Of a DNA stretch of 64,000 nucleotides, positions 4,241 to 62,141 are shown piece after piece. Below the pieces are notes generated by a model. It was not told where the DNA came from, did no database searches, and saw nothing but the letters and a program-made list of their open reading frames with translations. The DNA is from an archaeon GW2011_AR15 (GTDB lineage Archaea > Nanobdellota > Nanobdellia > Woesearchaeales > GW2011-AR15). The stretch's first letter is position 1. Each line of letters starts with the position of its first letter. Location: positions 416,001 through 480,000 of the forward strand of contig CP010425.1 of assembly GCA_000830295.1 (NCBI GenBank), written 5' to 3'. Made by a program: the position numbers and the translations under genes.

Positions 4241-7027
4241 TTACCAGCTGATCTTCCATGTTATAATCCTCTGGCCTGATATGTCAGTAACATCATGGAA
4301 TTTCCTGAAATGCGTGAGTCCCTGGCCGTCGAGGTAGAACATCCTTGTGAACATGCTGCCTACAAGCTCGTCTTCCATTACCAGCAGGGAGCTTTCTCCC
4401 ACAAGCACGATGCTGTAAGCCATAGTCTCTCCGCTGTATTCTTTTATCCTGAACTGCCCGTTTTCAACATAGCCGAATCTCTTCGGGTGTATTGTCTGGG
4501 TGCTTGTCACTATTGATGCGTCTTTTGATGCGAGGTTTACAGTGAGAGGAAGCACTCCCCCGTCTGTCGTCTGGAGGTTGCATCTCAGTGTGCTCTCATC
4601 CTGCTTTGCACACCCTATCTGGCCGCCGTAGCTTGGCCACGGAGCTATCCAGCTGTTTATCTGGCTGTCAGTGCTGAGCGAGCTTATCTCGTAATAAATT
4701 GACTGTGCTTCCTGCTCTGTATAGCCGAATTCCTGGACCAGTGCTGCTGTGAAATTGGGAAGTTTTTCTGTCTGAAAATAACTGTATATTTTTGCCCTTT
4801 CAAAATTCCAGCTGCCGAAATGCGCCCATACCGGTGCCTTGCCTACCATGTCCTCGCTTGTTATGAAATAATCCTCAGGAGGCTGGCAGAACATGTATGA
4901 CAGTATCTCATCTGCCTTTTCTTCAGAAGCTGTTTTCATCAGGTCTGCCTTTACAGCTGCACTGTCCATCTTCAGGTATCTGTAAATCAGATTCACGGAA
5001 TCATATGTGTCACCGGTGAGCTTTGTTATTTCCTGTTCTGCTTTTGCTCCGCCGCAGTCAAGCATCCTCAGGATTCCAACTGAAAGCTGCTCGTCATCTG
5101 TCAGCAGGGCATTGCCCACCCAGTGCGCCTGCTGCTCGTTCTGCGATGCACCGTCGCTTGTGACCCGCCTGTCTGCAAAATACTTGAACCAGTGGCCGAA
5201 ATCCCACCACGAATTTATAATCGCATCAGGCTGGGACTCTGCTTTTATTTTTTCAAGGGATTCAACCCATGCGTCATTGACTCCGGGGGCGTATGAATAT
5301 GATACGGCTATGCCGTTTTTTACGGGCTGTATCAATACCAATGCTATCAGAAGAATGAAGACTGCCTTCGGGATTGTCTCCGACATATCAAGGGATTTGC
5401 CCAGCATTGATGACATCTTCTCTGCTGCTGTGCCGAAAAAGACGCCGAATGATACTGCAAATACAGGCGCTATCAGCACGATAAACCTGACTCCCTTTGT
5501 TATTGCATATAACGTTGCCATCAGCCAGATAATTGTCAATATGGAATGTGCAGGCTCAAGCTCGTACTTGTAATACCATGAGAGTATAAAGCCTGCAAGC
5601 ATGGGAACCACAAGCAGCGCCGCAAACATTATGGTGCTGATGCCTCCTGAGCTTGCGCTTCCTACGATAATCATGAAATAAAGGGCCGCTCCTGCAAGAT
5701 ATGCCGCTGTCAGCATTGAATGGTTTTTATTTTTGAGGTTGACAAAGGACAGTGTTGCGCCCATCAGCGCAAGTATGAAAAACAATGCTCCTCCGAGGCT
5801 GACGATTGCCTGCCCGACATCTGCGGAATTAAGCTCTGCAACTGTTGTATATACGTTCGGCCAGAGGCTCCCTCCTTTTGCAGCATCCTTGAGATTGACT
5901 ATCCTCAGCGGGTTTGTGAACGATTGGATGAATTCCCCTGCATTGCCAAAGACAGCAAGAGAGATAAATGTCACAACTATATAAACCCCGAGAAGCATGA
6001 GCATCCTGCGGATGTTTTTGTTTGAGGCTATCTCCTTGATGTCTCTCTTCTTATCTATAAACTCGTATACTGCGATATATCCGATATATATTCCAAGTGC
6101 AAGTATTATGAAAAGGAACATGAACCACCAGCCTGACCATGCAAAGCTGTAGGCCCCGAGGAGCAATCCTGCAACAGCTGAAAATATCATTGTTTTTTTC
6201 TGGTCTTTCGAGTCAAAAGCATATACTGCAAAGAGCATTACCAGCAGCGGAAAAACCGCATTCACCATGTCATTGTCAGAGCCGAGAGACCTGCTCAGCA
6301 CTGTCGGATTGACTGCTATCAGCAGCGCTGCGATGAGGCCTGCAATGTCCCCCGAAAGCTTTTTTCCGACCAGGAATGCTGCAATTATGGCTATAAATGA
6401 GAGGAAAATAGGAGTATAGAATCCTGCCTTGAGCAGGTTCATGCCTGGGTCAAATATTCTCATGAACTTATATATGAATGCTTCAAGGTAAGGGTAAAGG
6501 TTCTGGGTTGCGGGAAGGCCGTTGGGCGCATTCATGTGGTTGTCATATGCAACTCCGTCCCTGTACTCATCTGCCAGCTGGCCTGTGTCAACTATGTTCC
6601 TTGCATACCTGAGCCAGAAATAAGAATCAATATCCCCCAGATATGTTGTGCCTGAATCATCCCTGTATAATGCCCTTATCTGCTCTGCATGGCCGGCTAT
6701 CAGCGCCTCTATCTGCGACTGCTGCTGGGAAACCACTGTCTGCAGCTGCTCATTTATCATGGCTTCCTTGCTCTGCTGCGGCAGATTCGGATATTGCGTG
6801 TCAACCTGTGCCTGGATGTTCCTTGCTATGTTATTATATATGCTCTGCCTGGCCTGGTCTTCTGCCATCGGCAAATGATAGGGCATCATCCTTATGTAGG
6901 CTGAAAAAAGCATTATTAAAAGCAGAAGGGCATACACCCCGTATTTTTTTGCTGAGCTGCCTGAAAATATCTTCTTAAGTGACGAGAAGTCAATAGCCAT
7001 GTCTGAATCTTCTTTATCTTTAGCCAA
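4241..7027 (-). CDS. aglB: Oligosaccharyltransferase AglB (STT3)
   Basis: DIDSY, DND, TVAE and WWDFG motifs; multi-TM N-terminal domain plus soluble C-terminal domain. Confidence 0.95.
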   Translation of the reverse strand: MAKDKEDSDMAIDFSSLKKIFSGSSAKKYGVYALLLLIMLFSAYIRMMPYHLPMAEDQARQSIYNNIARNIQAQVDTQYPNLPQQSKEAMINEQLQTVVSQQQSQIEALIAGHAEQIRALYRDDSGTTYLGDIDSYFWLRYARNIVDTGQLADEYRDGVAYDNHMNAPNGLPATQNLYPYLEAFIYKFMRIFDPGMNLLKAGFYTPIFLSFIAIIAAFLVGKKLSGDIAGLIAALLIAVNPTVLSRSLGSDNDMVNAVFPLLVMLFAVYAFDSKDQKKTMIFSAVAGLLLGAYSFAWSGWWFMFLFIILALGIYIGYIAVYEFIDKKRDIKEIASNKNIRRMLMLLGVYIVVTFISLAVFGNAGEFIQSFTNPLRIVNLKDAAKGGSLWPNVYTTVAELNSADVGQAIVSLGGALFFILALMGATLSFVNLKNKNHSMLTAAYLAGAALYFMIIVGSASSGGISTIMFAALLVVPMLAGFILSWYYKYELEPAHSILTIIWLMATLYAITKGVRFIVLIAPVFAVSFGVFFGTAAEKMSSMLGKSLDMSETIPKAVFILLIALVLIQPVKNGIAVSYSYAPGVNDAWVESLEKIKAESQPDAIINSWWDFGHWFKYFADRRVTSDGASQNEQQAHWVGNALLTDDEQLSVGILRMLDCGGAKAEQEITKLTGDTYDSVNLIYRYLKMDSAAVKADLMKTASEEKADEILSYMFCQPPEDYFITSEDMVGKAPVWAHFGSWNFERAKIYSYFQTEKLPNFTAALVQEFGYTEQEAQSIYYEISSLSTDSQINSWIAPWPSYGGQIGCAKQDESTLRCNLQTTDGGVLPLTVNLASKDASIVTSTQTIHPKRFGYVENGQFRIKEYSGETMAYSIVLVGESSLLVMEDELVGSMFTRMFYLDGQGLTHFRKFHDVTDISGQRIITWKISW

Positions 7028-21188: not shown

Positions 21189-22394
21189 TTATTCTTCTAC
21201 TTTTCCATCTATTAACTCCTGGACTGTCCTTAGAATAATAGTAATTCCTTTTTGATTTTTAACTCTAGCTACTTCTTCATATGCTCCCTTTGCAAATGAA
21301 AAAGCGACTATATATCCTTTCTTTTTATGGACTCTGTCCATAGCTGGTTGAAAATTATCTATAACATTCCGTCCTACACCTTCGCTTTGTTTAACCTGTA
21401 TAGGATAACCTCCAGATATTTGAGGAGTAACCCCATCTATTCCCATATCTCCTGATTTTGTTCCACTAACATTGCCAAGAAATTTATCAACAACAACCCA
21501 ATTTTGAAAATCAAAGGGGTTTAACTTCTGAACATATTTTAAATCTACTTTCCCTTTGATAATTTGTGGGCTTACTCCCAAATCTTGCCTTAATCTTCTT
21601 GCCATAACTTTACAGGCAGTGGGACTTATATCAATACCAATCCACCTTCTTTTAAGTTTTTGAGATACAACTAAAGTGGTTCCACAACCACAAAAAGGGT
21701 CTAAAACTATACTACCTTCATTTGAAGAGGCTTTAATTATTCTTTTTAATAATGGTTCTGGTTTTTGCGTTGGAAACATTTGTTTTATTGGTGGAACTCT
21801 ACCAATATCCCATACATCATCCATTGGAACCCCCTCAGAGTCTTCTTTTGACATTTTGGCAGGAATTCTTTTACCATTATCATCATAACCTGAAATTATT
21901 TTTGCATTTCCAAATCGCTTTAAGGTTGATTCTGACCTTTCCATAAACATCTTATTGAATACCCTTTTGTCATTATCTGTCTTTGAATAGAATAAGAGGA
22001 CATCATGATTTCGTTGAAATTGTTGCCATCCTCCCGACCATTTTCTATAATGCCATATTATCTCATTTCTAAAATTATTTTCTCCAAAAATATTATCCAT
22101 TAATATTCTTAGATGTGCGTCGGCGTGCCAATCACAATGCAAATATATACTACCTGTTTTTTTAAGGATTCTATTACATTCCCTTAATCTTGGCTCCATC
22201 CATGTTATATAGTGCTCTATTCCCCCTTGCCATCGGTCTTGAAATGCTCTAAGTTCAGCACCATCTTTCCATATAACTTCATAATGTCTATTAGAGAAGA
22301 AAGGTGGGTCTAAATAAATTAAGTCAACGCTTTCACTTGGAAATTTGCTTAATATCTCTAAGTTATCTCCTTCATAAATAGCATTTACTTCCAT
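21189..22394 (-). CDS. Beta-class N4/N6 DNA methyltransferase fused to an Mrr-like endonuclease domain
   Basis: DPPF, PTQKP and DPFCGCGTT motifs; C-terminal FQNWVV..GDMGIDG..IQVKQ; ATG 22394. Confidence 0.88.
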   Translation of the reverse strand: MEVNAIYEGDNLEILSKFPSESVDLIYLDPPFFSNRHYEVIWKDGAELRAFQDRWQGGIEHYITWMEPRLRECNRILKKTGSIYLHCDWHADAHLRILMDNIFGENNFRNEIIWHYRKWSGGWQQFQRNHDVLLFYSKTDNDKRVFNKMFMERSESTLKRFGNAKIISGYDDNGKRIPAKMSKEDSEGVPMDDVWDIGRVPPIKQMFPTQKPEPLLKRIIKASSNEGSIVLDPFCGCGTTLVVSQKLKRRWIGIDISPTACKVMARRLRQDLGVSPQIIKGKVDLKYVQKLNPFDFQNWVVVDKFLGNVSGTKSGDMGIDGVTPQISGGYPIQVKQSEGVGRNVIDNFQPAMDRVHKKKGYIVAFSFAKGAYEEVARVKNQKGITIILRTVQELIDGKVEE

Positions 22395-40256: not shown

Positions 40257-41671
40257 TGGCACAGGCAGATGCAGAAGAGGTAAAGAATTTCCTGGGAACT
40301 GAATACAGGTATGGGTTCAGCGACCCTGAGAAATTTGCATTCAGGACAGAAAAAGGACTGAGTGAAAAAGTTGTAAGGCAGATCTCAAAAATAAAGAAAG
40401 AGCCTGAGTGGGTGACGGATATGAGGGTAAGGGCCTATAAGCATTTCATGGAAAGACCTATGCCGAAATGGGGGGCTGACCTGAGCACAATAGATTTCGA
40501 CAATATATATTATTACGGCAAGCCTGAGGGAGAGCAGACAAAGGATTGGGACAAAGTCCCACAGGACATCAAAAAGACATTTGACAGGCTTGGGATTCCT
40601 GAAGCAGAGAAAAAATTCCTGGCAGGTGTCGGAGCGCAGTATGAATCAGAAGTTGTATACCATAATCTAAGAAAAGATCTTGAGAAGAAAGGCGTCATCT
40701 TCCTTGACATGGACGGCGGGCTTAGGGAGCATCCGGAAATTGTGAAGAAATGGTTTGGCAAGATAATACCTTTCAACGACAATAAGTTTTCAGCCTTAAA
40801 CACTGCTGTCTGGTCCGGCGGCTCATTCATCTATATCCCTCCGGGAGTCAGGGTGGACCTTCCGCTGCAGGCGTATTTCAGGATAAATGCAAAAAACATC
40901 GGGCAGTTCGAGAGGACACTGATAATCGCTGACAAGGGCTCATATGTCCATTATGTAGAGGGATGCACTGCGCCTGTATACAGCACAGACTCGCTGCACT
41001 GCGCAGTGGTTGAGCTTGCCGCGCTTGAAGGGGCCACAATAAGATACACTACAATCCAGAACTGGTCCTCAAATGTATACAACCTTGTTACAAAGAGGGC
41101 TTTCGCTTACAAGAACGCAAGGGTCGAATGGATCGACGGGAACCTTGGAAGCAAGATAACCATGAAATATCCGGGAGTTGTGCTGCTTGGCGAGCACGCG
41201 CATGGCGAAGTCATTTCAGTTGCGTTTGCAGGAAAAGGCCAGCATCAGGATGCGGGCGCAAAAATAACCCACCTCGCCCCAAATACTACCTCACAGATAA
41301 TCTCCAAGTCTGTTTCAAAGGACGGCGGAAGGACAACATACAGAGGGCTGCTGAGGGTTGCAAAGGGATGCAAGAATGTGAAAAGCTCTGTTGTCTGCGA
41401 CGCACTGATACTGGATCCGAAATCTGCAACAGACACTGTCCCTTATATGGAAGTGGAAGAGAAAGATGTTTCAATAGGACATGAGGCCTCTGTCGGCCGT
41501 GTCTCAGAAGAGCAGTTGTTCTATCTGATGAGCAGGGGCTATAGCGAAGAGCATGCCCTCGGCATGATTGTAAGGGGATTCATGGATGCCTTCGTAAGGG
41601 AGCTTCCGATGGAATATGCTGTCGAGCTTAACAGGCTGATTGAGCTGAACATGGAAGGCTCTGTAGGATAA
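40256..41671 (+). CDS. sufB: Fe-S assembly protein SufB
   Basis: [38 protein letters not shown]. Confidence 0.97.
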
Positions 41672-59836: not shown

Positions 59837-60844
59837 ATGCTTGCAGTAAAAGTCGAATTAAAAGATGCAGAGAAAGTAAAGAGAGAGATGATAGCCAAAG
59901 GCATATATGACAAAAATTACAAGCCAAAGAAGACAAAGACACACATTTTCTTTCCGGTCCAGGAAAAGCCAATGCCCCCGGCACTGAAAAAAGCAGTTGT
60001 CAAGACAAAGCTGAAAAAGACAGAACCAGAAGATTATAAAAAAATGCTCCTGGCCAGCATCCCAAAAGGTGTCAGTCTTCCCGCCTCATATGATATTGTC
60101 GGCGACATAATTATATTGGAGATAAAAGAGGACCAGGAAAAATACGAGAAGGAGATTGCCGGGGTACTTCTGAAAGCCCATAGGAACGTGAAGACAATCC
60201 TGAAGAAAGCCGGGATTCACGGAGGGGAATTCAGAACCCAGAAACTTAAGTGCCTTGCCGGAGAAAACAAAAAAGAGACCACATACACGGAGAACGGAGC
60301 AAGAATGAAGCTTGATGTTGAAAAAACTTATTTTTCATCCAGGCTTGCAACAGAAAGAAAAAGGATTGCAGCGCAGGTAAAAAAGAAAGAGAAAATTCTT
60401 GTCATGTTTTCAGGCATAGGCGTCTATCCCCTGGTTATATCCAAAAACACACCAGCCAGAAAGATAGTCGGGATAGAGAAAAACCCGGTTGCGCATAAAT
60501 ATGCAGAACAGAACCTGAAGCTGAACAAAGCAGTTAATATTGCACTGTATAAAGGAGATGTCAGGAAAATAGTGCCGAAGCTGAAAGAGAAATTTGACAG
60601 AATAATAATGCCCCTCCCGAAGGAGGCAGCAGGGTTCCTTGATGTTGCAGAGAAAGCATGGAAGAAGGGCACAATAGTCCATCTCTACGGATTCTCGCAC
60701 CAGGATAATCTGGATGAGACAGAGAAAGAAGTCAGAAAATTCTGCAAGGCTAACAAAATAAAGGCGGGGATAATCAGGACCATAACCTGCGGCCAGTATT
60801 CACCAAGAAAATATCGTGTCTGCGTGGATTTTAAGATAAAATAG
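59837..60844 (+). CDS. trm5: Trm5-family tRNA methyltransferase
   Basis: YDIVGDI, GEFR, YFSSRLATER, MFSGIG, DRIIMPLP. Confidence 0.9.
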   Translation: MLAVKVELKDAEKVKREMIAKGIYDKNYKPKKTKTHIFFPVQEKPMPPALKKAVVKTKLKKTEPEDYKKMLLASIPKGVSLPASYDIVGDIIILEIKEDQEKYEKEIAGVLLKAHRNVKTILKKAGIHGGEFRTQKLKCLAGENKKETTYTENGARMKLDVEKTYFSSRLATERKRIAAQVKKKEKILVMFSGIGVYPLVISKNTPARKIVGIEKNPVAHKYAEQNLKLNKAVNIALYKGDVRKIVPKLKEKFDRIIMPLPKEAAGFLDVAEKAWKKGTIVHLYGFSHQDNLDETEKEVRKFCKANKIKAGIIRTITCGQYSPRKYRVCVDFKIK

Positions 60845-60851
60845 AAAAGCA

Positions 60852-60920
60852 CATGCTCAGCAGTTACTACCCTTCTTCATCCTTGCGTCAGCGGGTGTTC
60901 ACCTAATCATCGCATGCATC
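60852..60920 (-). ncRNA. C/D-box methylation guide sRNA
   Basis: Minus strand: GCGAUGA (C) - UUAGGUGAACACCCG - CUGA (D') - AGGAUGA (C') - AGAAGGGUAGUAACUG - CUGA (D); AUGC/GCAU terminal complementarity; own TATA-like TTTTTAAAA about 20-25 bp upstream. Confidence 0.85.
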
Positions 60921-60948
60921 ATATGAGAATGAGTATTGTTTTAAAAAC

Positions 60949-62094
60949 TTAACCAAACATGTTCTTGTATTCCTTTGCTTCTGAATCTTCCTGTTCTTTG
61001 ACCTTCTCCACAGCCCTTACAAAATCACTCTCAGTAACCCTGTCCCTGTTGTCCCTTATTGCAAAATACCCTGCCTCCGTGCATACGGCCCGTATCTCTG
61101 CTCCTGAGAAATCATCCATCAGGCTGTAAAGCTTTTCCTTATTTACTGAATCGGTGCTCATATTTTTTGAATGTATCTTGAATATCTCTTTTATGCCTTC
61201 TCTGTCAGGCAGAGGGACATTCACCATCCTGTCAAGCCTTCCCGGTCTTGTTACTGCAGGGTCAAGTATATCCCTTCTGTTTGTGCAGCCTATTATCTTT
61301 ACATTGCCTAATGGCTCAAATCCGTCAATTTCTGCAAGAAGCTGCATGAAAGTCCTCTGCACTTCCCTTTCTCCTGATGTGCCGATATCAACCCTTTTTG
61401 CGGCAAGAGCATCTATCTCATCAATAAAAACAATTGAAGGTGCCTTTTCCTTGGCAAGCTGGAAAATTTCTTTCACAAGCTTTGCACCCTCTCCTATAAA
61501 TTTCTGGACGAGCTCAGAACCGACAACTTCTATGAATGTGCTGTCTGTTGCATTAGCGACTGCCTTTGCCAGGATTGTCTTTCCTGTTCCCGGAGGGCCA
61601 AACAGCAAAACTCCCTTTGGAGGAGTTATGCCAATCTTTTTGAATATCTCGGGCCTCTTAAGCGGAAGCTCAACAACCTCTTTCAGTTCCTGTATCTGCT
61701 TATCAAGCCCGCCGATCTCCGCGAAGGTAAGTTCGGGCTTTTCAAGTATTACAAAGCGCTCAACATTGAATCCCTTTGTGCCCTGTATTTTCCTCAGGAT
61801 ATTGAGATTCTTCTGGTCAACAAGCACGTTGTCTCCTGCCCTAAGCCTTCCGCAGGATTCTGAAATGCATACAAAGAACTGGTTGCCATTAGGGACTTTT
61901 ATGATGGCATTCTTGCCCATTATTTCCATTATCTCGCACATCATCAGAGGGGGGGTCCTGAACCTGTCAATCTCATTCTTAAGATGGTTGACGGTTTCCC
62001 TCAGTATCTTGTTCTCCTCTTCAAGGTCTGAAAGATTGGTAGAATAGGTAAACATCACATTGGATATTTCGTCTCCGCCGCTGTTGCTCCCCAT
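60949..62094 (-). CDS. pan: Proteasome-activating nucleotidase
   Basis: Coiled coil and OB domain, GPPGTGKT, FIDEIDA, GEREVQRT, RPGRLDR. Confidence 0.96.
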   Translation of the reverse strand: MGSNSGGDEISNVMFTYSTNLSDLEEENKILRETVNHLKNEIDRFRTPPLMMCEIMEIMGKNAIIKVPNGNQFFVCISESCGRLRAGDNVLVDQKNLNILRKIQGTKGFNVERFVILEKPELTFAEIGGLDKQIQELKEVVELPLKRPEIFKKIGITPPKGVLLFGPPGTGKTILAKAVANATDSTFIEVVGSELVQKFIGEGAKLVKEIFQLAKEKAPSIVFIDEIDALAAKRVDIGTSGEREVQRTFMQLLAEIDGFEPLGNVKIIGCTNRRDILDPAVTRPGRLDRMVNVPLPDREGIKEIFKIHSKNMSTDSVNKEKLYSLMDDFSGAEIRAVCTEAGYFAIRDNRDRVTESDFVRAVEKVKEQEDSEAKEYKNMFG

Positions 62095-62141
62095 CTTTAT
62101 CAAGGATAGAAAATATATTAATAAATCTTATGTATAAACTA

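Follow-up and report, generated by a model that had tools for sequence, protein, structure and literature searches.

A box C/D sRNA between trm5 and pan, conserved across an archaeal order, is predicted to guide 2'-O-methylation of the 23S rRNA A-loop in place of RlmE

The convergent genes trm5 and pan are separated by 104 bp in the window (by which we mean the whole 64,000-nucleotide stretch of DNA that was analysed), with the stop codons of trm5 (TAG, 60842-60844) and pan (TAA, 60951-60949) at the edges of the gap. Between the two genes, on the minus strand, lies a box C/D sRNA of 67 nt (window 60917..60851). The host genome is a single contig of 1,157,790 bp, 96.8% complete, with one 23S and one 16S rRNA gene. 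The features of the locus are as follows.

59837..60844, plus strand: trm5, Trm5b-like tRNA m1G37 methyltransferase (NF047730, 263 bits against an equivalog cut-off of 600; Pfam TRM5-TYW2, 144 bits)
60949..62103, minus strand: pan, proteasome-activating nucleotidase, upstream of the sRNA and on the same strand (NF003069, 496 bits against a cut-off of 500)
60939..60947, minus strand: TATA-like box TTTTTAAAA, its centre at about -26 relative to the start of the stem
60912..60917, minus strand: 5' half of the terminal stem, GCAUGC, pairing with the 3' half over 6 bp
60904..60910, minus strand: C box AUGAUUA, matching RUGAUGA at 6 of 7 positions
60892..60903, minus strand: D' guide GGTGAACACCCG (RNA GGUGAACACCCG), 12 nt, of which N2-N12 pair with the organism's own 23S rRNA at 2568-2578
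60888..60891, minus strand: D' box CUGA
60881..60887, minus strand: D'-C' loop CGCAAGG, 7 nt, a short hairpin in many homologs
60874..60880, minus strand: C' box AUGAAGA, a 6 of 7 match
60861..60873, minus strand: D guide AGGGTAGTAACTG (RNA AGGGUAGUAACUG), 13 nt, of which AGUAACU pairs with own 23S 2454-2460
60857..60860, minus strand: D box CUGA, its GA invariant in 58 of 58 homologs
60851..60856, minus strand: 3' half of the terminal stem, GCAUGU, pairing with the 5' half
60838..60848, minus strand: two T-runs, TTTT at 60848-60845 and again at 60841-60838, which probably form an archaeal terminator and lie across the stop codon of trm5 on the opposite strand

The RNA thus has the parts by which archaeal C/D sRNAs are recognised, namely a kink-turn C/D motif closed by a terminal stem, an internal D'/C' motif and guide spacers of about 12 nt. 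An earlier note on this DNA had placed C, D', C' and D boxes here, and both its coordinates and its boxes proved correct when the gap was read on the minus strand. The guides of 15-16 nt that it described are in fact 12 and 13 nt long; its target string for the D' guide takes in the complement of C-box bases. No match to the sRNA was found in Rfam at gathering thresholds (the best sub-threshold score was 24.5 bits, for sR1, RF01152, against a gathering threshold of 45), and the fold energy of the RNA was not unusual (z = -0.17), as expected for this class of RNA.

A BLAST search found full-length relatives in 12 of 40 related genomes (E 2.6e-6 or better), and in an alignment of 17 copies (A1) all six stem pairs were 100% paired, five of them with compensatory changes. 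The covariance model built from this alignment was used for genome searches and detected the sRNA in 130 genomes of a sample of 151 spread evenly over the order (E <=0.01; the 130 include one genome flagged as unpublished, G150, which enters into no other count) and in 101 of the 116 high-quality ones. It was also detected in 102 genomes of a 151-genome sample of the phylum (E <=0.001), 6 of these being from other orders of the class. Judged by these searches, the sRNA is a core gene of the order. The pattern of the family was present in at least 119 public stretches, and the contig titles among the 80 matches listed included Woesearchaeota, Nanoarchaeota, Nanoarchaeia, 'archaeon' and Nanobdellota, as well as 'uncultured Methanosarcinales' on third-party assemblies. 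The DPANN-like host proposed earlier is therefore borne out, as judged by the titles of contigs carrying the same RNA among the matches listed. In five sRNA-negative genomes a pattern for the A-loop guide was no commoner than its reversed control, and the six contexts viewed did not resemble an sRNA.

A second, larger alignment (A2) was made from 60 matches, from 60 loci, that were given to the model, and its 58 full members (all except the paralog L030 and one partial duplicate) are the homologs counted here. The terminal stem was 95.8% paired in A2 with compensatory changes at all 6 pairs. Position 6 of the C box paired with position 1 of the D box in 51 of 59 sequences (UA in 31, GC in 15 and CG in 5), which is the covariation expected of the second stem of a kink-turn; the window copy is among the 8 unpaired sequences, with U at C-box position 6 and C at D-box position 1. 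The UGA of the C box was invariant in all 58 homologs, as were the D' guide core GUGAACAC, with N1 and N12 varying, and the GUAACU of the D guide, with N1 free to vary. Seven members (L019, L080, L088, L094, L099, L103 and L106) have a shortened middle without recognisable D' or C' boxes and have kept GUGAACACC together with the D guide, suggesting that pairing of the A-loop guide may matter apart from methylation. Tandem second or partial copies were seen about 70-90 nt upstream of a full copy in several genomes (G056, C49:5440-5489 and 5561-5630; G071, C26:21318-21382 and 21468-21538; G117, C14:40119-40172 and 40258-40326).

The D' guide pairs at 11 of its 12 positions, in contiguous Watson-Crick pairs from N2 to N12, with positions 2568-2578 of the organism's own 23S rRNA (context GGGGUGUUCACCCAU), and alignment to E. 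coli rrlH places the A at N5 of the guide opposite own U2571, which corresponds to E. coli U2552. The duplex was calculated at -22.4 kcal/mol, against -15.8 kcal/mol for the next best site in either rRNA (a gap of 6.6 kcal/mol), and it has both the 9 or more base pairs with rRNA and the Watson-Crick pair at N+5 by which guides are judged. The prediction that this guide is complementary to helix 92 of the organism's 23S rRNA, with U2552 at N+5, therefore stands on 11 contiguous pairs, although the target string given with it, CGGGUGUUCACCUAA, has to be replaced by GGGGUGUUCACCCAU, which is what the 23S rRNA actually reads. In the host 23S gene (C1:1039966-1042873, minus strand) helix 92 is closed by a G.A at positions 2570/2576, where E. 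coli has C2551-G2557. The helix-92 form UGGGG-UGUUC-ACCCA, or a covarying one, was present in all 20 related 23S stretches printed, that of the RlmE-positive genome G032 included.

For the D guide the earlier note had suggested 16S rRNA near U1126, but a 16S partner is not credible and the site lies instead in 23S rRNA at E. coli 2435-2444. In 23S rRNA the guide fits best at AAGUUACUCCGG (own 2453-2464, E. coli 2434-2445, within E. coli 2434-2446, which we take to be the 3' strand of helix 74), where AGUAACU forms 7 bp with E. coli 2435-2441, one guide base bulges and GG pairs with CC at 2442-2443, and N5 of the guide is opposite own U2457, that is, E. coli U2438. The duplex of this particular copy is weak (-10.8 kcal/mol against -10.6 kcal/mol for other sites in 23S or 16S rRNA), which makes methylation of U2438 doubtful here, and the commonest form of the D guide in the family reaches -13.2 kcal/mol at the 23S site against -10.2 kcal/mol elsewhere. 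The best alignments to 16S rRNA carried two or more internal mismatches or loops, and those to tRNA (39 ARAGORN calls, as precursor and spliced forms) reached at most 8 Watson-Crick and 2 G-U pairs with mismatches, so both were rejected as targets.

It is the relatives that settle the target of the D guide, on comparative grounds. Within the order the guide reads AGUAACU and the 23S rRNA reads AAAAGUUACUCCGGGG (AGUUACU) in 23 of the 24 order 23S loci that could be read, the exception being G021 with AAAAGCUAUCCCGGGG (AGCUAUC). In the sister order five sRNAs have the guide AGUAGCU, and the 23S rRNA reads AAAAGCUACUCCGGGG (AGCUACU) in all three of those genomes that were read. This compensatory change between guide and 23S rRNA at N4 indicates that the D guide addresses E. 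coli 2435-2444, with U2438 as the predicted N+5 nucleotide. Most homologs, including the window copy, have one extra A or U in the D guide that must bulge. Bulge-free D guides occur in G132 (where the spacer is 12 nt long and CCGGAGUAACU gives 11 contiguous bp with 23S rRNA), in G173 (GGAGUAGCU, 9 bp contiguous to 23S rRNA) and in G189. The targets of the two guides are 114 nt apart in one domain of 23S rRNA.

Several further observations were made around this guide. The best near-matches to it genome-wide, 12/13 and 11/13 and each with a central mismatch, are at two intergenic CAGTTACAACCC sites (C1:1084458, plus strand, and C1:79139, minus strand), each followed by a T-run. ARAGORN called 19 tRNA genes in the whole genome without an intron search and 39 with one, none in the window; some of the calls are dubious and many of the introns are long or oddly placed. 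A second type of sRNA with the same D guide AGUAACU was seen in L025 (genome G025) and L030 (genome G033), near locus positions 1500 and 860 respectively. Its D' guide, UGUUAUUCCCGG or a form ending in CAG, can pair with the neighbouring 23S segment CCGGGGAUAACA (E. coli 2442-2453) with N+5 on G2446, making 11 Watson-Crick pairs and one G-U with the 23S rRNA of G025. A half-unit scan of the window's genome found no D' guide of this second type.

As a control for chance, the whole 1.16-Mb genome was scanned on both strands for the full C/D architecture, yielding 5 candidates, of which only the sRNA between trm5 and pan has an 11-bp rRNA match; the three other loci behind these candidates read as coding (two of these were viewed). 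In the half-unit scan (1396 unit-target tests) 11-bp rRNA matches were obtained 3 times with real guides and 4 times with reversed guides, so complementarity alone is not decisive. A relaxed scan for a kink-turn, stem, TATA box and T-run gave 23 candidates, and a second convincing sRNA was not found among them; such scans miss degenerate or intron-borne guides, and the genome may hold a second C/D sRNA of this sort. Neither the success of reversed guides nor the ordinary fold energy can rescue the idea that box-like motifs and an rRNA match have come together here by accident, which is practically inconceivable and is ruled out by homologs in 130 of 151 order genomes, by compensatory changes affecting the stem, the kink-turn and the pairing of guide with target, and by a conserved promoter. 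For the sRNA being real, conservation and covariation, as read from these comparisons, are decisive.

The promoter was visible across the 58 loci as an A+T content of 0.95-0.97 at -28..-25 from the start of the stem, together with a consensus resembling TTTAWA and, at -35..-32, a stretch rich in A, and a run of at least 4 T followed within 25 nt downstream in 36 of the 58. Both neighbours were seen in 30 loci, the sRNA being on the trm5 strand in 20 and on the pan strand, as in the window, in 10; a further 24 loci had a single neighbour within the 1.5-kb flank and 4 had neither. In this genome the sRNA begins 32 nt past the stop codon of pan and on the same strand, and might thus have no gene of its own, being a cleavage product of the pan 3' UTR. 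This origin is very improbable, as the TATA signal is held at a fixed distance in the 58 loci, the RNA lies on the trm5 strand, convergent to pan, in 20 of the 30 loci with both neighbours, and pan is not nearby in the genomes of the sister order. That either orientation is found between pan and trm5 argues for a separate transcription unit with its own promoter, and the description of the sRNA as a stand-alone gene is upheld by its anatomy, its TATA box and the promoter signal of the 58 loci.

The proteins needed for such an RNA to act were sought in the same genome. All three are encoded. The genes for fibrillarin (250.7 bits) and Nop5 (163.9 bits) share a strand, with about 540 bp between them, and a third gene encodes L7Ae (102.8 bits). 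Neither an FtsJ profile nor tblastn revealed a full-length FtsJ/RlmE gene in the genome. The only FtsJ profile matches (27.6 and 20.7 bits) fall inside proteins of Methyltransf_11 and RsmB/NSUN type, and the best tblastn match of five sister-order RlmE proteins (E 0.004) was at SAM-binding motifs.

One 151-genome sample of the phylum was searched for both the sRNA and FtsJ. FtsJ matches at E <=1e-8 occurred in 25 of the 151 genomes, 20 of them being full-length and of at least 150 bits (strong RlmE). None of these 20 RlmE genomes has the sRNA and none of the 102 sRNA genomes has a strong RlmE, counts in which related genomes are not independent samples. The best NCBIfam match of the strong RlmE proteins was rrmJ (233.7 and 166 bits for the two proteins tested, below the equivalog cut-off of 300). 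Overlap was confined to G107, with a 38-bit partial FtsJ match in a 302-aa frame, and G189, with an 84.7-bit FtsJ-like frame and a weak 32-bit sRNA match. Neither the sRNA nor an FtsJ match was found in 26 of the 151 genomes, most of family f44 being among these; in one f44 genome (G174) a run of N fills the trm5-pan spacer and leaves it unreadable. Among the families of the order, f47 and f14 at least have RlmE and lack the sRNA. The FtsJ-like frames of G189 (C3:110300-110842) and G192 (C2:46185-46709), of 235-241 aa and 84.7 bits, were unmatched by sister-order RlmE in tblastn (E <=1e-4) and may be a different FtsJ-family enzyme.

The two genes also share a position. Of 21 rlmE loci examined, 10 have rlmE in convergent orientation to trm5 at a distance of up to 1.5 kb, and in 7 of these the distance is at most 170 nt. 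The gene order in G032 is trm5, rlmE, one other frame and pan. In 4 of the 6 sRNA genomes of the sister order, trm5 is followed by the sRNA at a distance of 45-800 nt. This shared place beside trm5, taken with the non-overlapping distribution, bears out the earlier suggestion that the sRNA possibly replaces RlmE, and we read it as one gene having replaced the other, in either direction, at one locus. In the RlmE-positive genome G065 the slot after pan gave a 16.4-bit match (E 0.0084), its 5' half inside the coding end of pan, in which AAGUAACUU-AGGA is kept and the A-loop guide is absent; it may be a relic of the sRNA. The trm5-rlmE spacer of G032 (L264, 103-269) contains an 11-bp inverted repeat, GAAACCCGACA / TGTCGGGTTTC, enclosing GATGAGT, TGTTATT and GGTAACT motifs, and may be a degenerate guide RNA.

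The RNA at this locus is therefore very probably an independently transcribed archaeal box C/D double-guide sRNA, the D' guide of which would direct formation of Um2552 and so do the job of RlmE; its expression, its assembly into an RNP and methylation at either site are inferred. By analogy with the family, L7Ae would bind the C/D kink-turn and the C'/D' motif, after which Nop5 and fibrillarin would assemble. The D' guide would pair with the unfolded A-loop hairpin (helix 92), presenting U2552 at N+5 for 2'-O-methylation, and the D guide would pair with 23S 2435-2444, just 5' of the peptidyl-transferase ring, with U2438 at N+5, in a duplex that a bulged guide base would interrupt in most members, the window copy too. 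The sRNA would thus perform in this lineage what RlmE performs in related lineages, from the same neighbourhood beside trm5.

It is possible, though we think it unlikely, that one or both guides serve mainly as an assembly chaperone, keeping two elements of domain V, helix 92 and the helix-74 strand, either open or together during folding, with the bulged D guide not methylating. Such a role, which has been put forward for double guides (PMC4644070), would fit the 1-nt A or T insertion that is kept in the D-guide duplex in most of the 58 homologs, the retention of GUGAACACC in members without recognisable D' and C' boxes, and the placing of two targets 114 nt apart in one domain. The D' side, however, has a canonical CUGA and an exact N+5 A-U pair on a nucleotide that is nearly universally methylated, the D guides of G132, G189 and G173 are free of the bulge, and the non-overlap with RlmE is not easily accounted for if the RNA does not provide the methyl group. 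Methylation of U2552 guided by the sRNA thus remains the preferred reading. A more speculative extension, which we offer tentatively and would not favour, is that this reduced genome has kept all three C/D proteins for this single double-guide RNA, which would have displaced an ancestral rlmE in situ beside trm5, and that the conserved bulged D guide clamps the peptidyl-transferase centre during folding instead of guiding methylation.

Um2552 is among the most widely conserved modifications of rRNA, and this locus offers a natural example in which an enzyme and a guide RNA alternate among close relatives, with no overlap and in a shared gene position. The analysis also defines, for a large DPANN order that is uncultured, a core C/D sRNA that is easy to recognise, and if the 1.16-Mb genome holds no other canonical one, the lineage would be a minimal model for the retention of C/D machinery.

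Among known systems, sR1 of Rfam is like the present RNA in its box layout, which aligns end to end (positions 1-57 of 57), and unlike it in its guides, which are unrelated; with its score for sR1 below threshold, the RNA described here is not in any curated Rfam family. RlmE (RrmJ, FtsJ) has the same predicted product, Um2552, and is found in relatives that lack the sRNA, often beside trm5, but it works as a protein alone and at a late stage, on the 50S subunit, and its homolog is absent from this genome. According to one account, every species examined there carries an A-loop modification at U2552, at G2553 or at both (PMC7994747). In yeast the equivalent nucleotide, Um2921, is likewise RNA-guided, by snR52 with Spb1 as backup (PMC2584109), although snR52 is a eukaryotic snoRNA that coexists redundantly with an FtsJ-family enzyme, whereas here the two routes do not co-occur. 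Haloarchaea are described as having an RlmE homolog in place of an sRNA (PMC2584109). The sR25 of Pyrococcus abyssi is an archaeal C/D sRNA also predicted for the equivalent of E. coli U2552 (PMC2584109, citing Gaspin et al. 2000), and differs, in a likeness drawn by description only, in belonging to a hyperthermophile with dozens of C/D sRNAs.

Another parallel is with Nanoarchaeum equitans, a member of the same phylum, whose sR10 is a double guide with its D' guide predicted to target the first A-loop nucleotide and its second guide a site nearby in domain V (PMC4644070). The D' target of sR10 is given there as alignment position U2826, which we equate with E. coli U2552 since C2830 of that alignment is E. 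coli C2556, and its D guide is directed to U2880 (E. coli C2606), unlike the U2438 proposed here, the two RNAs being compared by description only. The same work predicts an sRNA guide for the first A-loop nucleotide in five of its seven archaea (PMC4644070). A search of the literature at the level of titles and listings found no description of C/D sRNAs of Woesearchaeota or of how RlmE and the sRNA are distributed. RNA-guided Um2552 is already known from these accounts (PMC4644070, PMC2584109), so this kind of sRNA is not new, and what the present analysis adds to it is the correct second target, conservation across an order, the non-overlap with RlmE and the shared position beside trm5.
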